Positions 659-7,430 of a stretch of 64,000 bases of DNA are shown piece after piece. Under the pieces are notes generated by a model. It worked only from the letters and a program-made list of their open reading frames with translations, searched no databases and was not told the origin of the DNA. The DNA lies in NCBI RefSeq assembly GCF_003334765.1, contig NZ_QOWT01000022.1, one strand, 5' to 3'. This stretch comes from Escherichia coli. GTDB lineage: Bacteria; Pseudomonadota; Gammaproteobacteria; Enterobacterales; Enterobacteriaceae. The stretch's first letter is position 1. Each line of letters opens with the position of its first letter. A program made the position numbers and the translations under genes.

Positions 659-1465
659 ATGAGTGTTATGAATCCAATAAGTTCTAATATATTTAATGCT
701 GAATTTTTAAACACCCCGGCAGCGGCACTTGCCGCATGGATTTCCATTATTGGAGCTGTTATAACTTTGGTGACGATAGTTATAAGAGCACTATTCAAAT
801 ATAGAAAATCTCATGATGTAATTTTGAAAAAATCAGGAATACCTGCGTTTATATTGAATTTTTTTCTTATACGAATATCATTAAAAAGGCTGCCTACTAT
901 CACATGGGCTGAAAAATCAATCACGGTTCTCTTTTCACTTCTTTTTTTGTGTGCAATTTATATTTTTGGTCCAGTTTTCATCCAAGCCATTAGAACCCCA
1001 CCAAATAGCACATTGCTTTATTGGATAAAATCCGGTGAATCATTTTATATGTCAAAAAAACTGGCGACTGCAGCTACAATATTAACCACTCCTGATTGGG
1101 AAATATCAAAGGATGATTGCGAAGAGTCATCCTCTGCCAGTACAGAGAAGTACAAATCATTAACTATCGAACATAAAGAAATTCTTTGTAAACTACTAAC
1201 CACTGATGAAGGGAATGCTTACATTGATGAAGAAGTCAAGAATTTCGTTAAAGACAAATTCTTTATCTATTCCTTTGCCCCAACAACCATATTTATTCTA
1301 TTATGGATTTCTTTGGGTTTTATACTGACCATTCACTATTCTAAAAAAGTTAGGAAATATATTCTGACTGAACAAAAAAATGCAATTCATTGGGCATATG
1401 GTGAATTCAAGACAGAAGGAATCTATTCAATATATCAAGAGTTAGAACGTAAGACTCACCATTAA
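659..1465 (+). CDS. Hypothetical polytopic membrane protein (268 aa), AT-rich cargo gene between S and V
   Basis: ORF with GGTGG Shine-Dalgarno 6 nt upstream; several hydrophobic helices; AT-rich; opposite strand to flanking tail genes. Confidence 0.5.
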   Translation: MSVMNPISSNIFNAEFLNTPAAALAAWISIIGAVITLVTIVIRALFKYRKSHDVILKKSGIPAFILNFFLIRISLKRLPTITWAEKSITVLFSLLFLCAIYIFGPVFIQAIRTPPNSTLLYWIKSGESFYMSKKLATAATILTTPDWEISKDDCEESSSASTEKYKSLTIEHKEILCKLLTTDEGNAYIDEEVKNFVKDKFFIYSFAPTTIFILLWISLGFILTIHYSKKVRKYILTEQKNAIHWAYGEFKTEGIYSIYQELERKTHH

Positions 1466-1853
1466 GACCCAACAAACGACGCTCTGCGTAACGCACTTCC
1501 GGTCCTTTGCGGCTGACGCGATCGCGCAGGCCATAATGGTGAACGCGGGCAATGCGCTGCACCTTACCTTCAAACTGCACGCTGGCAGAATCGGCGCTGG
1601 CGGCAGTTTTCAGGTATTTGGTGGTGCGCAGCTTTGCAAACATCTGACGTTTGATGCGGCCTTTTTTACTGCGCGCCGTGACCTTGCGCGGTTCATAACT
1701 GCTGCCATCTGGATTGCGCTGCATCCTGATATTCTGCTGCTGTGTCCGGCGCAGTTCCTGCGCCAGCTGGCGCATCATGCGGCTTCTTGCGACTGGTTCC
1801 AGATTCGCCAGTAAGGCACTAAGCCAGTCGTCCACCTTCTGCAGTTCAGCCAC
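1407..1853 (-). CDS. Phage tail completion / virion morphogenesis protein (gpS-like)
   Basis: 148-aa ORF with the sequence character of the phage virion morphogenesis family; lies between R-like and V as in P2. Confidence 0.7.
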   Translation of the reverse strand: MAELQKVDDWLSALLANLEPVARSRMMRQLAQELRRTQQQNIRMQRNPDGSSYEPRKVTARSKKGRIKRQMFAKLRTTKYLKTAASADSASVQFEGKVQRIARVHHYGLRDRVSRKGPEVRYAERRLLGLNGESYVLTLDILNRFLLS

Positions 1854-2304
1854 GTTTCACCGTCCACATTTCTTCAGGTTCATCGGGTTCTGCTACCGCT
1901 TCAACGCTCGACACACTGCCGTCAGTGCTGACCAGCACACGTTCCGTCAGTTGCAGGTTAAGGCTGATATCACAGACATCGTTGCGCAGAATATCCACCT
2001 CAAAGGTAAATAGTTTTTCCCGTAACGCCGGGTTATTGATGGCATCGGGCTGGTTATCCCGCAGCCACAGCAAAACCGGGGCCATCAGCAGATTCTGGTC
2101 GCCGCTGAAATCCTCAATCACCACGTTCAGGGTGTAACCACGCAGCCCTACGAGTTCACTAAAGGCAGTATCTTTCACCTGATGGAGCCGGACCTGAACC
2201 AGGAAATTTACGGCCTGCCGGAATATCTGTCCGCCATTCCGTCCGCCTTGCTGAACGAGTCCGCTACGCTGTTCCGGCGTAAATACTACATCAATGGCAG
2301 TCAT
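1846..2304 (-). CDS. Phage tail completion protein R-like; N-terminal portion probably not native (antisense to portal-derived sequence)
   Basis: 152-aa ORF; its stop overlaps the S start by 8 nt; its first ~40 codons overlap the portal fragment on the other strand. Confidence 0.5.
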   Translation of the reverse strand: MTAIDVVFTPEQRSGLVQQGGRNGGQIFRQAVNFLVQVRLHQVKDTAFSELVGLRGYTLNVVIEDFSGDQNLLMAPVLLWLRDNQPDAINNPALREKLFTFEVDILRNDVCDISLNLQLTERVLVSTDGSVSSVEAVAEPDEPEEMWTVKRG

Positions 2305-2712
2305 GCAGGGTTCATCATGTATATGACCGACGCCGCGCAGAACCAGGAGGACGTGAACAACATCCGCCAGGCCATGAAAAGCGCTAAAGGACCGGGCAAC
2401 TTCCGCAACCTGTTTATGTATTCACCCAACGGCAAAAAGGACGGGATTCAGATAATCCCGCTGTCAGAGGTAGCGGCAAAGGATGAGTTTCTGAACATTA
2501 AGAACGTGAGCCGAGACGACATGATGGCTGCACACCGCGTTCCGCCGCAGATGATGGGGATTATGCCGAGTAATGTTGGGGGATTTGGGGATGTGGAAAA
2601 GGCGAGTAAGGTGTTTGTCCGTAACGAATTGATACCGCTGCAAAAGCGAATTAAAGAAATTAATGAATGGTTGAGTGATGAAATAATTTCTTTCCAACCA
2701 TATGAATTATAA
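2182..2712 (+). pseudogene. Phage portal protein (gpQ-like) C-terminal fragment; 5' boundary uncertain
   Basis: Translation contains RRKYYINGSHAGF and MMAAHRVPPQMMGIMPSNVGGFGDVEKASKVFVRNELIPLQ, which I recognise as portal C-terminal sequence; far too short for a complete portal. Confidence 0.6.
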
Positions 2713-2733
2713 TAAAGTAGGGCAAATAATGCC

Positions 2734-3591
2734 CTACTTTAACCAAATATTATAATCCAATCTTCCTACGTATCTTGAAAAAACAGCCAGAGCAATTGCT
2801 TGCCCTACACTTGTTAATTCAATTCCTTGATAGTTGCTCTTTGAAAATTTTTCTAAAAATGCAGACACATGAGGGGCAACTAACTTAAGATTTGAAATAT
2901 ATGCACTCTTATCTTTTATATCAGTCGGATATTTACTCATAAAATAGTCTTCAACATCCATCCCTAAAAAAGTATTCCATGAACAAGCCCCTGCATATTG
3001 AATGTGATATATCTGGGCTTGAGACAAATTAAACCCATTAGTATACATTGATTCAAAGTTTCTAAAATTGTGCTCCAACAAATCCAATCGAACACCATTA
3101 ACAGGGTCTTTGATCTCAACATTCTTGAGAAGAAAAACTATCGTTATAAGTGATATTTGTTGCTGTGTTAACTTGGGAACGACGGTAACTGCCTCCGTTA
3201 AAACTATATCTCTAAAATCGTCATTGTTATTGGAGACTCGTTCAACTAACAACTGAGAAAGCACATCCATATTAGCTTTCTTTCCCTTCCTGGCTGATGA
3301 CTTTAATGCCTCAGTCAATGTAGCCTGAACGTCCGGATCGCAAAATTTATCAATAATCAATCTATCAACGTTTTTTGTTAAATCCGAAACGACACGCTCT
3401 TCAAAATCTTTTGCATTCTCTTGAGCTGCAGCATAAGCAACATCTTTCAATTTTGGAAACTGATTTTCGAAGAGAATGTTGAATAGTTCTCTAACCTCGG
3501 AAAACGACATCCCTGAAACATTTACATTATTTCCAGCTTGAATTGCATACGAATTATTACCTATTTGTTGCTTTTGCTTATCACTAAACAT
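2734..3591 (-). CDS. Hypothetical protein (285 aa), AT-rich cargo; second gene of a two-gene module
   Basis: Start is preceded by GGAGGA directly after the stop of the upstream small membrane protein gene; no family recognised. Confidence 0.6.
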   Translation of the reverse strand: MFSDKQKQQIGNNSYAIQAGNNVNVSGMSFSEVRELFNILFENQFPKLKDVAYAAAQENAKDFEERVVSDLTKNVDRLIIDKFCDPDVQATLTEALKSSARKGKKANMDVLSQLLVERVSNNNDDFRDIVLTEAVTVVPKLTQQQISLITIVFLLKNVEIKDPVNGVRLDLLEHNFRNFESMYTNGFNLSQAQIYHIQYAGACSWNTFLGMDVEDYFMSKYPTDIKDKSAYISNLKLVAPHVSAFLEKFSKSNYQGIELTSVGQAIALAVFSRYVGRLDYNIWLK

Positions 3592-3600
3592 ATATCCTCC

Positions 3601-3846
3601 TTATTTTTTATCACCTGTATTTATACAATCAATTTTAATATCACCTCTAGCCTGGACAGCAGTTGAATTATCACCAACTGATTGGCTCATAGAATTATAT
3701 TTATTTTTTGTAGTGATAAGTAATCCAGCTAAAGCGCTAACTGCAGCCAAAAATGCAACAATAGAATCAAAACCAGGATCCATATAAAGCCATAATCCTG
3801 CAATCGATGCCAGCATACATGTAATGACTATTGCAAAAATTTTCAT
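3601..3846 (-). CDS. Small membrane protein (81 aa, two predicted TM helices); first gene of the two-gene cargo module
   Basis: ORF with AGGAG upstream; hydrophobic N-terminal two-thirds, polar C-terminal tail. Confidence 0.55.
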   Translation of the reverse strand: MKIFAIVITCMLASIAGLWLYMDPGFDSIVAFLAAVSALAGLLITTKNKYNSMSQSVGDNSTAVQARGDIKIDCINTGDKK

Positions 3847-3914
3847 AAATTCTCCTTCTAATGGAAGTGGTTATACCGAAAACAATTTCCTTTTACAACC
3901 ACGCACAGCGCGCG

Positions 3915-3940
3915 CTCGTATCCCCGCCACGCCTGCCCGC
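3915..3940 (-). other. Candidate cohesive-end (cos)-like sequence of the P2/186 type
   Basis: Minus strand reads GGCAGGCGTGGCGGGGATA; the GGCGTGGCGGGGA core matches the 186/P2 cos overhang as I recall it, and it sits in a GC-rich island between AT-rich cargo. Confidence 0.3.
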
Positions 3941-3983
3941 TTTGTGTAGTGGTTTTCATGCACCTGCATGACATAAGTAAAAG

Positions 3984-4001
3984 CCCGCCAGAACTGGCGG
4001 G
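3984..4001 (-). terminator. Hairpin plus T-run on the minus strand (possible relic phage terminator beside cos)
   Basis: cccgcca-gaac-tggcggg stem-loop followed on the minus strand by CTTTTACTT. Confidence 0.35.
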
Positions 4002-4151
4002 ACTGAGCAAAAACGATCCTTTTGCGATCATTCATTTTCATGCGCTATAGTCATGCAACAAACGCATACGAACCATATGGTTAGATTACTCATCAAGTCA
4101 GATGGATTTTCAGGCAGATTGCCACAGCAATTGTAAAGGAGCGAGATTGAA

Positions 4152-5153
4152 ATGGGTGGAGAGACTTCGGCTATACAACGAGTCGCGGGTAAGATTTCTG
4201 ATGATATTTTCTCAGTGTTCAAATGGGATCGTGCCGCTAGAGCGGACATGAATTGGGATTGTTGCCAAGAGGCTCATTCCAAGAAAACACATCCAAGCGA
4301 TGTTGTATTTTTCTACATAGATCCATATGAGGAGGAAATGGTCTATCTCAACACAGACCTCAAAAGCTATGCAGAAGGTACTATTGGGAAAAAAATAGTC
4401 GAGGGAGCTTTAACATCGCTTGCTTTAGCTACCGAGTGTGCAAATGTCAGTGAAGAATGGCGATTGAAATATGTTCATGATGATTCTTTAGGTTATAACG
4501 TAAGAGGGTTATTATTCTTATATAACCATGATAATTTATATGATAAAGACTTCTATGAGAATATTACAAAAAAATTAGATCACTCATCTATAAATTGCCC
4601 TCCAAACATCAAACTACATTTGCTTGACCCTTATAAAATATCAGATTTGATAAACATATCTTCTGACATAACTAAGTTAATTGGTTCAGGCAAACTTCCT
4701 CAACCTGATAAGTTCACATATTATTATCCAGATCTTTCCCTAACAAGAATAAAGCACCCTATTAATCAGACAACACCTGCAACAATTGAATTATTAACAT
4801 CACCATACATTATAATAAAGCATGAGGCTTTCAGTTGGCTCAGGGATAAAAACCCTGAGGGATATGTTGTTTATTACAATCAACCGGGGGATTCAGTAGA
4901 CGAATTCGTTTACTTCTTTGATATGTTATCAACTTATCAGATATTAACCGAAGGTAAACCAATCGTATTACGCCATTGTCACATTCACCCAAATGAAAAT
5001 GCCATTCATCATTTTGAAAGAGCGAAAAAGAAATACAGCACAGACTGGCTCTTAGGCGAGGATGAAAGACTTTTTCTTAAAATTGACTTCGACAAGACAG
5101 ACAAAATTGTTGTTGAATATAATCTTGAACAAATCGGCATGGAGCAACGATAA
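4152..5153 (+). CDS. Hypothetical protein (333 aa), gene 1 of a three-gene cargo cassette; possible PD-(D/E)xK-like motif
   Basis: AGGAG upstream; AT-rich; FFYIDPYEEEMVYLNTDLK resembles a hhhD...(D/E)xK nuclease core; no Walker A. Confidence 0.7.
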   Translation: MGGETSAIQRVAGKISDDIFSVFKWDRAARADMNWDCCQEAHSKKTHPSDVVFFYIDPYEEEMVYLNTDLKSYAEGTIGKKIVEGALTSLALATECANVSEEWRLKYVHDDSLGYNVRGLLFLYNHDNLYDKDFYENITKKLDHSSINCPPNIKLHLLDPYKISDLINISSDITKLIGSGKLPQPDKFTYYYPDLSLTRIKHPINQTTPATIELLTSPYIIIKHEAFSWLRDKNPEGYVVYYNQPGDSVDEFVYFFDMLSTYQILTEGKPIVLRHCHIHPNENAIHHFERAKKKYSTDWLLGEDERLFLKIDFDKTDKIVVEYNLEQIGMEQR

Positions 5154-6232
5154 TGGCTAAAAAACTATATTTCGCAACTGATAAAAATATTTATGATGCA
5201 TTACATCATAAAAGGATAACCGCTGCAAAGTTGCATGAATTATTGTTGAATCGAGGTGTGTTTTTATCACCAGAACTCGACAAGGAAATACTAATCGAGG
5301 AAATATCCAAACTTCCTCACGGATTTAATGAATTAGAACACATAAAAAAACTGGTCAAAACATATGACCCAAGGGAAAGCACTACTAGTGTGAGCTTCCA
5401 AACCTCAACAAATCAGGCCGAATTAAAAAGTGCTGCTGAAGCACTAAAAAAAACATGCTCCCCTAGTAAAGGTCAAAGCCTGAATATTGTAGCTAAAAAA
5501 GATGGCTCGCTTACAGTAGAATACAAATATGAAGAAATAGACCTGTCTAAAACTGCATTACGTCAGATCGACAAGCGGAATGTTATAATAGAACTTCGCC
5601 CTGGAGCTGACAAAGTTGAAGTACGTATGCCTCAAAACCCCGAGGCAAAAAAAGTTATTGAGAGCTTGCAAAACGAGCTATCTAAAATCAAGTCCGAACC
5701 TATCGAGCGCTTCGAAATATCATTACTAGCAATAACTGATCCTACATTGCGAAGTCAGTTTTTTCAGGAATTAATGAATGGTCTACGCGGTTATGAGACT
5801 GATGACGTAACAAAAGTCGAATTAAATCGCAGTACTGATGCTAGTGAGGATGAAGACAAGGAAGAAACTATTGATACCGGATTTGTTAAGAAAGCCGTCC
5901 TTAATGGTGAAGGGGTAAATAGTTCAGCTATATTTTCTCAACTACATGAGAAAGGTTATTATATCGGGCGTATTGCATGGTCTTCAAAGCCGACAAGTGG
6001 AATTGGAGACAGAATCAACGTCGAAGCATTTTTCAAAGACTCAGAAAAATGCTGTGACTTTGCCTATCAAATTAAAGGTATAAACAATCAAAAAGAAGAC
6101 GGTTTCAATGTAACCATTCGCGCGGCAACGGCACAAGAGAAAAAACATATTAGTGAATTAATTGAGTCCGCCGCTGAAAATGCCTATAATATAATAATAG
6201 GATCAGAGGTGAACGAAGATGAAAAAGGTTAA
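5153..6232 (+). CDS. Hypothetical protein (359 aa), gene 2 of the three-gene cassette
   Basis: ATG overlaps the gene 1 stop (TAATG at 5151-5155); GGAG 8 nt upstream; acidic patch SEDEDKEE; no recognisable family. Confidence 0.7.
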   Translation: MAKKLYFATDKNIYDALHHKRITAAKLHELLLNRGVFLSPELDKEILIEEISKLPHGFNELEHIKKLVKTYDPRESTTSVSFQTSTNQAELKSAAEALKKTCSPSKGQSLNIVAKKDGSLTVEYKYEEIDLSKTALRQIDKRNVIIELRPGADKVEVRMPQNPEAKKVIESLQNELSKIKSEPIERFEISLLAITDPTLRSQFFQELMNGLRGYETDDVTKVELNRSTDASEDEDKEETIDTGFVKKAVLNGEGVNSSAIFSQLHEKGYYIGRIAWSSKPTSGIGDRINVEAFFKDSEKCCDFAYQIKGINNQKEDGFNVTIRAATAQEKKHISELIESAAENAYNIIIGSEVNEDEKG

Positions 6233-6902
6233 ATGGCTTAAGTTAAACATACGGCTTGAGTTTGAAACAGCCGTTAGACGTCTTTCTCTTGATTCTTTTA
6301 CAGAGGATAAAGGGAAAGGGTTCATTTTTGATAAAATACGCCATGATTTTGCAAATGGTCGCTTTGTCGAGCGTATTGTTTATCATGATAAAATATTAAG
6401 CTTTGACGGAAGCGAAACTACCGTTGAAAGAATCGAATATCGCACCACAAATTTTAGCGTGGCTTTAGACTCTCTTCCTGTAATGCAGATTACTAACCCA
6501 CCCAGAACTTTAAAGCCTTTTTCGCAGGCTTTGGTAAAAAATCTTGGCTTAGGTGTTAGTTTGGAAGAAATTGACATAAACCCTATAGACTGGCTTAATG
6601 AAATATCTTCAAGTGTAAATATCAATTTAACACAACTTGATATTTCAAGGGTTAGAGTTTCTGATTACGCCACAGCTAAAATGCAAATAATTGGCAGCAA
6701 TGATCTTAGGAAGTATTATAAAGAAGAATTAGAGGGTAAAAAAATAAGAATTGACAGGCTTGTTTGCTCTGTTAATTCATTAGAATATTCCGGTAAGCTC
6801 AAGATCACCAATAGCGGCCTTGCTTATATTGATGTTAGAAATGAGAATGAGTTTACGAAAATCGTTTTTGATACGTTAAAAAAAGTCACCCTTCAATCAT
6901 AG
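6219..6902 (+). CDS. Hypothetical protein (227 aa), gene 3 of the three-gene cassette
   Basis: Start lies 14 nt inside the end of gene 2 (translational coupling); GAGGTG upstream; no recognisable family. Confidence 0.65.
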   Translation: MKKVKWLKLNIRLEFETAVRRLSLDSFTEDKGKGFIFDKIRHDFANGRFVERIVYHDKILSFDGSETTVERIEYRTTNFSVALDSLPVMQITNPPRTLKPFSQALVKNLGLGVSLEEIDINPIDWLNEISSSVNINLTQLDISRVRVSDYATAKMQIIGSNDLRKYYKEELEGKKIRIDRLVCSVNSLEYSGKLKITNSGLAYIDVRNENEFTKIVFDTLKKVTLQS

Positions 6903-6997: not shown

Positions 6998-7231
6998 TTA
7001 ATGCAGCCAGCTATCGTCCTCCCAGACCTGCTGCATTATTTCCATCACTCGCTTTTTGTCTTCATCCAGTTTTAACCCGCTCAGCTCAACGCCATTGGCG
7101 CTGCCCTTACGGATACGAATTGCTGTTTTGGGATACAGAGGGCGCAAATTACGGTAAAGCTCGGATTCAAGGGCGTCCAGGGTAGACTGGCTAATCTTCT
7201 GCTCTTTATCGATCATTATTTCAATGCGCAT
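6998..7231 (-). CDS. DinI-like protein (77 aa from the MRIEIM start), resembling the C-terminal part of a 186 Tum-type module
   Basis: MRIEIMIDKEQKISQSTLDALESELYRNLRPLYPKTAIRI...VWEDDSWLH resembles DinI; the track ORF (7303 start) is probably over-extended. Confidence 0.6.
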   Translation of the reverse strand: MRIEIMIDKEQKISQSTLDALESELYRNLRPLYPKTAIRIRKGSANGVELSGLKLDEDKKRVMEIMQQVWEDDSWLH

Positions 7232-7241
7232 AAAAGCCACC

Positions 7242-7430
7242 TCAGCTGATGACATCCATTGAGCGGTTGTATTCGTGGGTTCTGATTTTTGCCATGAGTT
7301 CATCTGTCAGTTCAGAAACCCACTGCAGAGCCAGCCCCTTCTCTTCATCACTACACTCACTAGCCGCTACAAGCTTAAGAAAAAAATCAATGCGCTGGAG
7401 CTTCAAAGACTCCAAAAAATAGTCCTGCAT
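7242..7430 (-). CDS. Small protein (62 aa), first gene after the LexA-controlled promoter; possible Tum-like antirepressor part
   Basis: AGGAGG 4 nt upstream of the ATG; directly downstream of the LexA box; different frame and overlapping the DinI-like ORF. Confidence 0.4.
   Translation of the reverse strand: MQDYFLESLKLQRIDFFLKLVAASECSDEEKGLALQWVSELTDELMAKIRTHEYNRSMDVIS

Follow-up and report, generated by a model that had tools for sequence, protein, structure and literature searches.

Amyloid-type signalling between the products of adjacent genes was thought to be largely confined to fungi and multicellular bacteria. The RHIM, fungal PP and bacterial BASS3 motifs are defined by a G-phi-Q-phi-G core, and BASS motifs in general span about 25 amino acids (aa), with an abundance of Q/N/G/V/I and little P/L/K. 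They are located at the C-terminus of an effector and at the N-terminus of a receptor encoded by the adjacent gene, the two partner motifs being 43-56% identical (Dyrka et al. 2020, 10.1101/2020.01.06.895854; PMC7885112). In the Bab/Agp system (BASS11) of Escherichia coli ECOR25 two adjacent genes share a motif, infection triggers assembly, and beta-breaker mutations abolish defence (bioRxiv 10.1101/2024.11.07.622273). Bab/Agp is the one experimentally demonstrated anti-phage case of such signalling, and a literature search returned no second one. The subject of this work is a two-gene cassette of a P2-like prophage located in a 64,000-nt stretch of the E. coli contig NZ_QOWT01000022.1 (assembly GCF_003334765.1); the whole of this stretch is referred to as the window. 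Gene 1 encodes an 81-aa membrane protein and gene 2 encodes a 285-aa protein (Table 1), and the most informative feature of the pair, overlooked in a preliminary description of the locus, is a 22-residue motif common to both proteins. The reading we favour is that the cassette represents a motif-coupled module of the abortive-infection or exclusion type, consisting of a sensor and a membrane effector, which we hold to be about as likely as not; true amyloid templating between the two proteins is on the doubtful side.

The two proteins and their common motif

The motif is located in the predicted cytoplasmic tail of the small protein, where the family consensus is xQSQxVSxxSxGIQAG(R/G)DVxI, and in the disordered N-terminus of the large protein, where it is KQxQxVxxGSTAIQAG(R/G)DVxI. 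It occupies the same register in both partners in 18/18 pairs, with a mean identity of 45% over the 22 positions, which is within the range reported for BASS partners; the placement of the motif also corresponds to that of the RHIM, PP and BASS3 systems. The G-phi-Q-phi-G core is found in 15 of the 18 small-protein tails, several of which read STGIQAG or STGIQVG, compared with STGIQIG in the solved fibrils of the RIPK1 RHIM; the STGIQxG of these tails is therefore the RIPK1 RHIM core. As in RHIM, PP and BASS3 motifs, the core is flanked by N, G and D residues. Unlike these motifs, the large partner has an A-phi-Q-phi-G core (16/18 N-termini, with G-phi-Q-phi-G in 0/18), its first core position being always Ala, and the fourth core position of the motif is usually Ala. 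In alignment A1, residues Q18, A19 and G20 of the large protein are invariant, and the N-terminal motif is retained in distant members of its family. The composition of the motif is of the kind described for BASS, RHIM and PP motifs: it is biased towards Q (3.5-3.8 fold enrichment), G (1.8-2.4 fold) and N (1.4-1.8 fold), contains no P and has L at 0.1-0.2 fold, although K is not depleted. No paper on this motif was found in the literature search. The R/G covariation after QAG was considered as a sign of co-evolution and dismissed, as it runs along clades and amounts to no more than one or two events.

The small-protein allele of the window reads STAVQARGD where otherwise 97%-identical Salmonella-type alleles read SIGVQAGGD (L022, 5892-5991). 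The last 100 nt of the gene contain six nucleotide differences from the Salmonella allele, four of them non-synonymous and in the motif core, and the motif of the large partner beside it is unchanged.

The AlphaFold2 (AF2) model of the 81-aa protein contains two helices (aa 2-22 and 26-44) with a predicted local distance difference test score (pLDDT) of 75-87, in accordance with the preliminary description, which had presented it as a small two-helix membrane protein. The transmembrane (TM) helices are joined by a DPGFDS loop and followed by a C-terminal tail of about 35 aa. Because basic residues follow helix 2 and the DPGFDS loop is acidic, the positive-inside rule suggests that the protein is an inner-membrane hairpin with a short periplasmic loop and with both termini in the cytoplasm (Nin-Cin). 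The 285-aa protein is cytoplasmic, and the two copies of the motif would thus sit on protein ends that face each other in the cytoplasm. A search with the single 81-aa sequence recovers near-identical copies alone, and no Pfam family matches; a profile built from the syntenic small genes recovers 320 clusters of 77-86 aa, and this profile places the protein in a family that is conserved but has no name. In PHROG it falls into group 27656, to which no function is assigned.

Class II holins have two TM helices and a Nin-Cin topology. The topology of the 81-aa protein fits a class II holin or pinholin; it has no holin match in PHROG or Pfam, and its gene lies outside a lysis cassette. A role as the holin of the phage's own lysis cassette was rejected in view of the wrong position, the lack of a holin family and the presence of the pair also in non-phage elements. 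A morphogenesis protein native to the site, homology to which the preliminary description had named as an argument against cargo status, was likewise searched for and rejected, since phage P2 has no gene there.

The 285-aa protein matches the NF045477 model with 243.4 bits (curated cut-off 45 bits), residues 27-284 being aligned to positions 1-257 of the 257 in the model. Its homologues carry PF28206, and RefSeq names it as a protein of the LPO_1073/Vpar_1526 family. By these profile matches it belongs to the curated but uncharacterised LPO_1073/Vpar_1526 family (NF045477, PF28206), for which an exhaustive profile search (E <= 1e-3) yields 2330 representatives, most of them 278-293 aa long. 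The preliminary description, which recognised no family for either protein, is thus outdated as regards the large one. The literature search found no paper on LPO_1073, and Vpar_1526 is named only in a Veillonella proteome study.

The AF2 model of the 285-aa protein is all-alpha (pLDDT 81, predicted template-modelling score 0.77), with aa 1-24 disordered. Its structural neighbours in the AlphaFold database (AFDB) are all uncharacterised, and the sequence profile has no match in PDB, nor was any found in BFVD. Pfam searches with both proteins returned noise alone (T4_Cef with E = 0.015, CBM64 and Arch_flagellin); a match of the large protein to the PHROG 'cef' family (E = 0.0012, aa 119-167) was dropped as too weak and too local. 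The motif of the large protein has a pLDDT below 50 in the monomer model. In the AF2 model of a fusion of both proteins in their natural order, short strands are predicted with low confidence at residues 55-57 and 63-66 and at 89-91 and 97-100, which are equivalent positions of the two motifs.

Conserved pairing and fusions of the LPO_1073 domain

The loci used for the analysis of pairing were retrieved via the large gene alone. In 13/13 genome loci the same-strand gene directly upstream of the large gene encodes a protein of 64-93 aa with one or two TM helices, and the gap between the two genes lies between -14 and +15 nt (by another reckoning, between a 1-nt overlap and +15 nt). As labelled, these loci belong to Beta-, Gamma- and Alphaproteobacteria, Chlorobiaceae, Brocadiaceae and Desulfomonile. 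The same pairing is found in the viral contigs L024-L026, and overall the large gene directly follows a gene for a 63-93-aa membrane protein in about 20 distinct loci, with no fewer than five phyla represented. The pair and its motif are thus conserved between phyla and between mobile elements of different kinds. The 243-bit family score, the 320 clusters of small proteins and the adjacency in 13/13 loci indicate that neither of the two open reading frames (ORFs) of the cassette is a chance ORF.

In several loci the pair is found in the company of mobile or defence genes. In a phage contig (L030) the small gene and a gene for a 351-aa member of the LPO_1073 family adjoin holin and amidase genes, in a Polaribacter island (L033) the pair adjoins ParDE and Shedu, and in Roseateles (L035) it is located in a prophage region; it is also present in L038 and in a Mu-like prophage, in the latter beside a protein with a weak TIR match. 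Neighbours of further homologues include a DUF262/PDC-M55C gene, a relaxase with TraG in an integrative and conjugative element (ICE), a P4-type integrase in an island and, once, the housekeeping gene sbcC. The preliminary description had compared the architecture of the pair with abortive-infection and exclusion modules, a reading that is strengthened, and not proven, by the mobile-element, Shedu/ParDE and DUF262 contexts and by the HNH fusions described below.

A locus beside a P4-type integrase (L013, 5760-7893, the same locus as L028, 1237-3370) consists of one small gene and, behind it, two LPO_1073 paralogues in tandem, each of which has the motif at its N-terminus. This arrangement could represent two sensors sharing one effector. 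In two Rhodocyclaceae metagenome-assembled genomes (L036, 5001-5240, and L037, 3471-3710) an orphan small gene with an intact motif directly follows a Schlafen/AlbA_2 gene, with no LPO_1073 gene downstream.

These orphans bear on the possibility of a toxin-antitoxin or addiction module, in which the hairpin protein would be a holin-like toxin neutralised by the LPO_1073 protein via the motif, and which would stabilise the prophage or island with or without an anti-phage role. An unopposed toxin in L036 and L037 would be lethal unless inactive, and a conserved 285-aa domain with about 2330 representatives is large for a simple antitoxin; moreover, the HNH-LPO and TM-LPO fusions put the supposed toxin and antitoxin in one chain. 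We therefore regard this explanation as decidedly improbable, even with the tight, translationally coupled operon, the class II holin-like topology of the small protein, the homologues in mobile elements and beside ParDE, and the persistence of the cassette in a heavily deleted prophage on its side.

Fusions of the LPO_1073 domain were found with two kinds of partner. Four representatives (P0239, P0186, P0220 and P0257) are single-chain forms consisting of one TM helix, one or two motif copies and the LPO_1073 domain; P0239 holds two copies of the motif, GNQIQIGGDFNV and LITQAGRDVNY. Five others (P0218, P0235, P0253, P0254 and P0260; 399-471 aa) comprise an N-terminal domain of about 110 aa, a degenerate motif-like linker and the LPO_1073 domain. 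This N-terminal domain matches the PADLOC models of HNH effectors, namely, PDC-M68A (1e-25), SduA (6e-18) and CBASS endonuclease/SAVED-HNH (1e-17 to 1e-15). At the one HNH-LPO locus that could be read (L031, 3991-5391), there is no gene for a small membrane protein upstream. The LPO domain is thus joined to a membrane element in some proteins and to a nuclease in others, as would be typical of a sensor or regulator whose effectors can be exchanged.

The single-chain TM-LPO proteins are also what would be expected if the small protein were a membrane anchor that tethers the LPO_1073 protein via a stable beta-zipper. The LPO domain would then act at the membrane, e.g. in superinfection exclusion by blocking DNA entry or in lysis timing, with no triggered death or templating. 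Conservation of the motif across the family rather than within particular pairs agrees with such an anchor, as do the prophage-borne position of the cassette, adjoining packaging or lysis genes, and the Abi-alpha-type annotations among the fold neighbours of the large protein, Abi-alpha being known to alter lysis timing. However, the HNH-LPO fusions have no membrane part, which suggests that the LPO domain is independent of the membrane and acts like a regulatory module on interchangeable effectors. Pairs also occur beyond phages, in ICEs and genomic islands, and neither an enzymatic nor a known binding fold was detected in the LPO domain. On balance, the anchor is an unlikely explanation.

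Two further representatives, P0205 and P0258, have an N-terminal helical extension of 100-140 aa that starts with MEIDEIL or MPIDSII and is followed by a Q/N-rich stretch. This extension has no match in Pfam, NCBIfam or PADLOC.

Proposed mode of action and comparison with known systems

As a motif-coupled defence module, the cassette would be expressed from the prophage and act as an abortive-infection or exclusion system. The LPO_1073 domain would serve as the sensor or switch, its N-terminal motif becoming exposed or clustered upon infection. This motif would pair with the motif in the tail of the membrane protein and propagate a beta-sheet assembly of a RHIM/BASS3-like and possibly amyloid nature. 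From the clustered two-helix hairpins a holin-like lesion would then arise, so that the membrane is depolarised or permeabilised before the phage cycle is completed. By analogy, the working mode would be like those of E. coli Bab/Agp and fungal NWD2/HET-S, with another sensor and another executioner.

The likeness to Bab/Agp begins with the gene arrangement: two genes stand side by side in a prophage or a defence island, one for a small membrane-targeting protein with a C-terminal motif and the other for a partner with the same motif at its N-terminus. It extends to the motif itself, which in both systems is rich in Q, N and G, spans about 22-25 aa and lacks order in the monomer. The logic of a sensor activating a membrane executioner, which for the present pair is our proposal, would also be shared. 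The components are different: the sensor of Bab/Agp is a 1094-aa TPR-GreAB-PIN protein whereas the proposed sensor of the present pair is the 285-aa all-alpha LPO_1073 protein, and the Bab/Agp effector has a soluble Babybell/Bell domain instead of an integral two-helix hairpin. The motif is not BASS11, as judged by residues I87-G88-S89-V90, Q92 and D99-N100 given in the paper. From the RHIM, PP and BASS3 systems the pair further differs in having neither a NOD-like receptor (NLR, with NB-ARC or NACHT) nor a Bell/HeLo domain, and in its distribution, BASS1-10 having been reported mainly in multicellular Actinobacteria and Cyanobacteria and the present pair occurring in unicellular Proteobacteria and phages. 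As the pair lacks an NLR or TGP receptor as well as a Bell domain, and as the first core glycine is missing in the large partner, we do not count it as a member of Bab/Agp or of the BASS/RHIM group.

A different comparison is offered by Abi-alpha of E. faecalis V583 prophage 6, a 272-aa prophage protein whose phenotype is premature lysis (PMC6356687). It resembles the 285-aa protein in being prophage-encoded, of similar size and biochemically uncharacterised, but it acts as a single gene, for which no partner with a shared motif has been described. Among the 50 structural neighbours that rank highest for the 285-aa model in AlphaFold-DB, three carry the label DUF4393 (TM-score 0.62-0.83, 20-26% identity, E 7e-15 to 4e-11). 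Pfam Abi_alpha matched 0 of 136 LPO_1073 sequences (the window protein and 135 representatives), and no Abi-alpha PHROG was linked to the 285-aa protein. A relationship is hinted at by these three AFDB annotations, and no sequence method confirmed it.

The analogy with the RexA/RexB system of phage lambda is confined to function. This exclusion system is likewise encoded by a prophage and has two components, a sensor of about 280 aa in the cytoplasm and a small polytopic membrane protein that depolarises the cell; however, RexB has as many as four TM helices, the two Rex proteins have no peptide motif in common and the gene order is reversed. Neither sequence nor fold similarity of RexA/RexB to the present pair was detected. 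The combination of one regulatory domain with a membrane effector or an HNH nuclease recalls CBASS Cap5-type SAVED-HNH proteins, Shedu SduA and PDC-M68A, and the TIR and TM system Rst_2TM_1TM_TIR of phage AC1 resides in the same P2 hotspot as the present cassette. Unlike the CBASS, Shedu and TIR-type systems, the pair has no cyclase, SAVED or TIR signalling component, and a peptide motif, in place of a nucleotide messenger, appears to couple its components.

Several observations weigh against a motif-coupled defence module. The proposed sensor is neither an NLR nor a TGP protein and the proposed effector has no Bell domain. PADLOC has no match for the 285-aa protein, and for the 81-aa protein it returned one weak match to a CBASS 2TM effector (E = 0.017), which was treated as compositional. 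Neither the motif profile nor the motif peptide retrieved RHIM chains or fibrils from PDB; since the hidden Markov model of the motif did not retrieve them, the RHIM resemblance is limited to the core of 5-7 residues. In the AF2 model of the natural-order fusion the motif region has a pLDDT below 50. Cognate and non-cognate partner motifs are nearly equally alike (9.8 vs 9.3 of 22 positions, permutation p = 0.066), a non-significant difference that provides no evidence for pair-specific co-evolution. The TM-LPO fusions and the motif-like linkers of the HNH fusions can be explained equally well by a permanent structural or oligomerisation element and by a templating switch. The core of the window allele is A-V-Q-A-R (TAVQAR vs IGVQAG), i.e. 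both core glycines are lost, and the window copy could therefore be attenuated; this allele may be altered or weakened. Finally, the cassette is very rare in isolated phages, tblastn searches of isolated phages and plasmids having returned almost nothing.

In its widest form, we put forward only tentatively that the LPO_1073 protein and its small partner constitute a widespread RHIM-like amyloid-signalling immune module of unicellular bacteria and phages, in which a non-NLR sensor templates a membrane executioner, the same sensor is wired to HNH nucleases, and some loci combine two sensors with one effector. If this is true, Bab/Agp would be joined by a second, unrelated and far more widespread family (about 2330 representative clusters), RHIM-like motifs would extend to phage-borne cassettes of common Proteobacteria, and the executioner would be an integral-membrane hairpin instead of a Bell/HeLo domain. 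A curated family without a function would gain one, with a new phage-sensing domain that is also coupled to nucleases. The cassette is tractable, being 1.2 kb in size and present in E. coli, and the sharp predictions made here can be addressed by mutation. Should the amyloid part prove wrong, the catalogue of P2-hotspot defence systems would nevertheless gain a strong new candidate in this conserved pair.

The cassette in the P2 hotspot

Table 1. Features of the cassette and of the surrounding P2-like prophage, in window coordinates.
Feature	Position	Strand	Remarks
Gene 1	3601-3846	-	81-aa ORF, ATG start
Gene 2	2734-3591	-	285-aa ORF, ATG start
Motif, small-protein copy	3628-3693	-	aa 52-73, SMSQSVGDNSTAVQARGDIKID
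Motif, large-protein copy	3514-3579	-	aa 5-26, KQKQQIGNNSYAIQAGNNVNVS
Shine-Dalgarno sequence of gene 1, AAGGAG	3852-3857	-	5 nt ahead of ATG
Shine-Dalgarno sequence of gene 2, GGAGG	3596-3600	-	abuts TAA of gene 1; 4 nt ahead of ATG
Putative cassette promoter	3870-3898	-	-35 TTGTAA (3898-3893), 17-nt spacer, -10 TATAAC (3875-3870)
Perfect 12-bp hairpin (TAAAGTAGGGCA / TGCCCTACTTTA)	2713-2741	strand-neutral	between the convergent portal gene and gene 2; overlaps the stop codon of gene 2
cos, 19-nt cohesive end (GGCGTGGCGGGGATACGAG)	3915-3933	-	by alignment to P2 cosL; one boundary of the cassette
Remnant of portal gene gpQ, C-terminal 176 aa	2182-2712	+	PHROG 68 / TIGR01540; other boundary of the cassette
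gpS and gpR-type tail genes	1407-2304		P2-like prophage
DinI-like gene	6998-7303		P2-like prophage
gpA replication endonuclease	7582-9996		P2-like prophage gene

The preliminary description of the layout, as a tight operon of two AT-rich genes on the strand opposite to the portal fragment and between this remnant and a cos-like site, proved accurate. The junction of the two genes reads, on the minus strand, TAA (3603-3601), GGAGG (3600-3596), ATAT and ATG (3591-3589); the Shine-Dalgarno sequence of gene 2 thus follows the stop codon of gene 1 directly, which couples the translation of the two genes. The GC content over 2601-3800 is 33-36%, compared with 52-55% in the flanking phage genes, and the pair is convergent with the portal fragment. 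The identity of the two boundaries is supported by the portal family assignment and by the alignment to P2 cosL (Table 1). Given the position of the cohesive end, about 17 nt lie between the start of the cassette and the terminus of the virion DNA. The TTGTAA and TATAAC hexamers, as read from the sequence, form a plausible promoter of the cassette 17 nt inside cos; it is missing from the output of the consensus scan because its -10 hexamer ends in C. At the other end, the hairpin is probably a bidirectional terminator, in the position of tQ of P2. The region 2713-3898 on the minus strand is thus a self-contained operon of two genes, carried as cargo by a P2-like prophage between its cos site and its portal gene.

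In phage P2 just 167 bp without any gene separate cosL from the stop codon of Q, which implies that the gene pair is an insertion. The cassette was found in 6/5426 complete E. coli genomes. In the intact prophages L001-L003 the pair occupies the same site, the gene order being terminase - portal, 285-aa gene, 81-aa gene, cos, cargo, DinI and gpA, and an allele with 42% identity is located at the same site between cos and the portal gene in two other P2-like phages (L024, L025). The survey of this locus in related prophages, which the preliminary description had proposed, thus recovered the pair in place. In strain PEC422 the cassette is accompanied by other cargo across cos than in the window. 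Together with the short P2 spacer, the rarity among genomes and the hotspot location described below, these data bear out the earlier view of the pair as cargo.

Across cos, the window contains three genes on the plus strand (4152-6902; 333, 359 and 227 aa) with full-length matches to PADLOC Hp1, Hp2 and Hp3, which we take from the PADLOC naming to be Rst_3HP, a three-gene hotspot system reported as protective against P1. The different cargo of PEC422 shows that the pair is independent of the 3HP system.

The interval between gpA and gpQ is a published defence hotspot of P2 (Rousset et al. 2022, PMC9122126). The cassette conforms to it in being located between gpA and gpQ beside cos in a P2-like prophage and in its variable presence among relatives. 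The present pair is listed in Table S5A of that paper only as 'hypothetical + hypothetical', and the systems assayed there were other ones from the hotspot. Cargo with no defence role, e.g. partition systems and cytolethal distending toxin, is found in the hotspot as well (PMC9122126). In this light, the pair might have an accessory role outside mobile-element conflict, as an envelope or membrane stress factor or in lysogenic conversion, with its location in the hotspot being incidental; the lack of a match to defence models and the single homologue adjoining housekeeping sbcC would be in line with such a role. We consider it very improbable, given the recurrent association with prophages, ICEs, integrases and known defence genes and the fusion of the same domain to a CBASS/Shedu-type HNH effector, which is hard to square with a physiological function.

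The cos-proximal DNA is conserved among P2-like phages. Short ORFs of 56-57 aa at 3858-4041 on the minus strand overlap this conserved cos region and are annotated as 'hypothetical protein' in several records of Klebsiella P2-like phages; they are probably not genes but conserved packaging-site DNA. A terminator-like GC-rich hairpin with a T-rich tail (CCCGCCAGTTCTGGCGGG CTTTTAC) is located at 3984-4001 on the minus strand, across cos from the cassette.

The prophage of the window is devoid of head, terminase and lysis genes; all three of its cargo modules are nevertheless intact. A deletion near 2138-2182 joins the gpR-type tail gene (1846-2304, minus strand) to the C-terminal half of the portal gene, and its junction was found in 0/5426 complete E. 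coli genomes. A gene at 659-1465 on the plus strand, with a GC content of 33%, encodes a 268-aa protein with predicted membrane-spanning segments. RefSeq names this protein DUF6216, and it has no match in PADLOC, PHROG or NCBIfam. The gene sits between baseplate gene V and tail gene S and represents a separate moron in the late genes.

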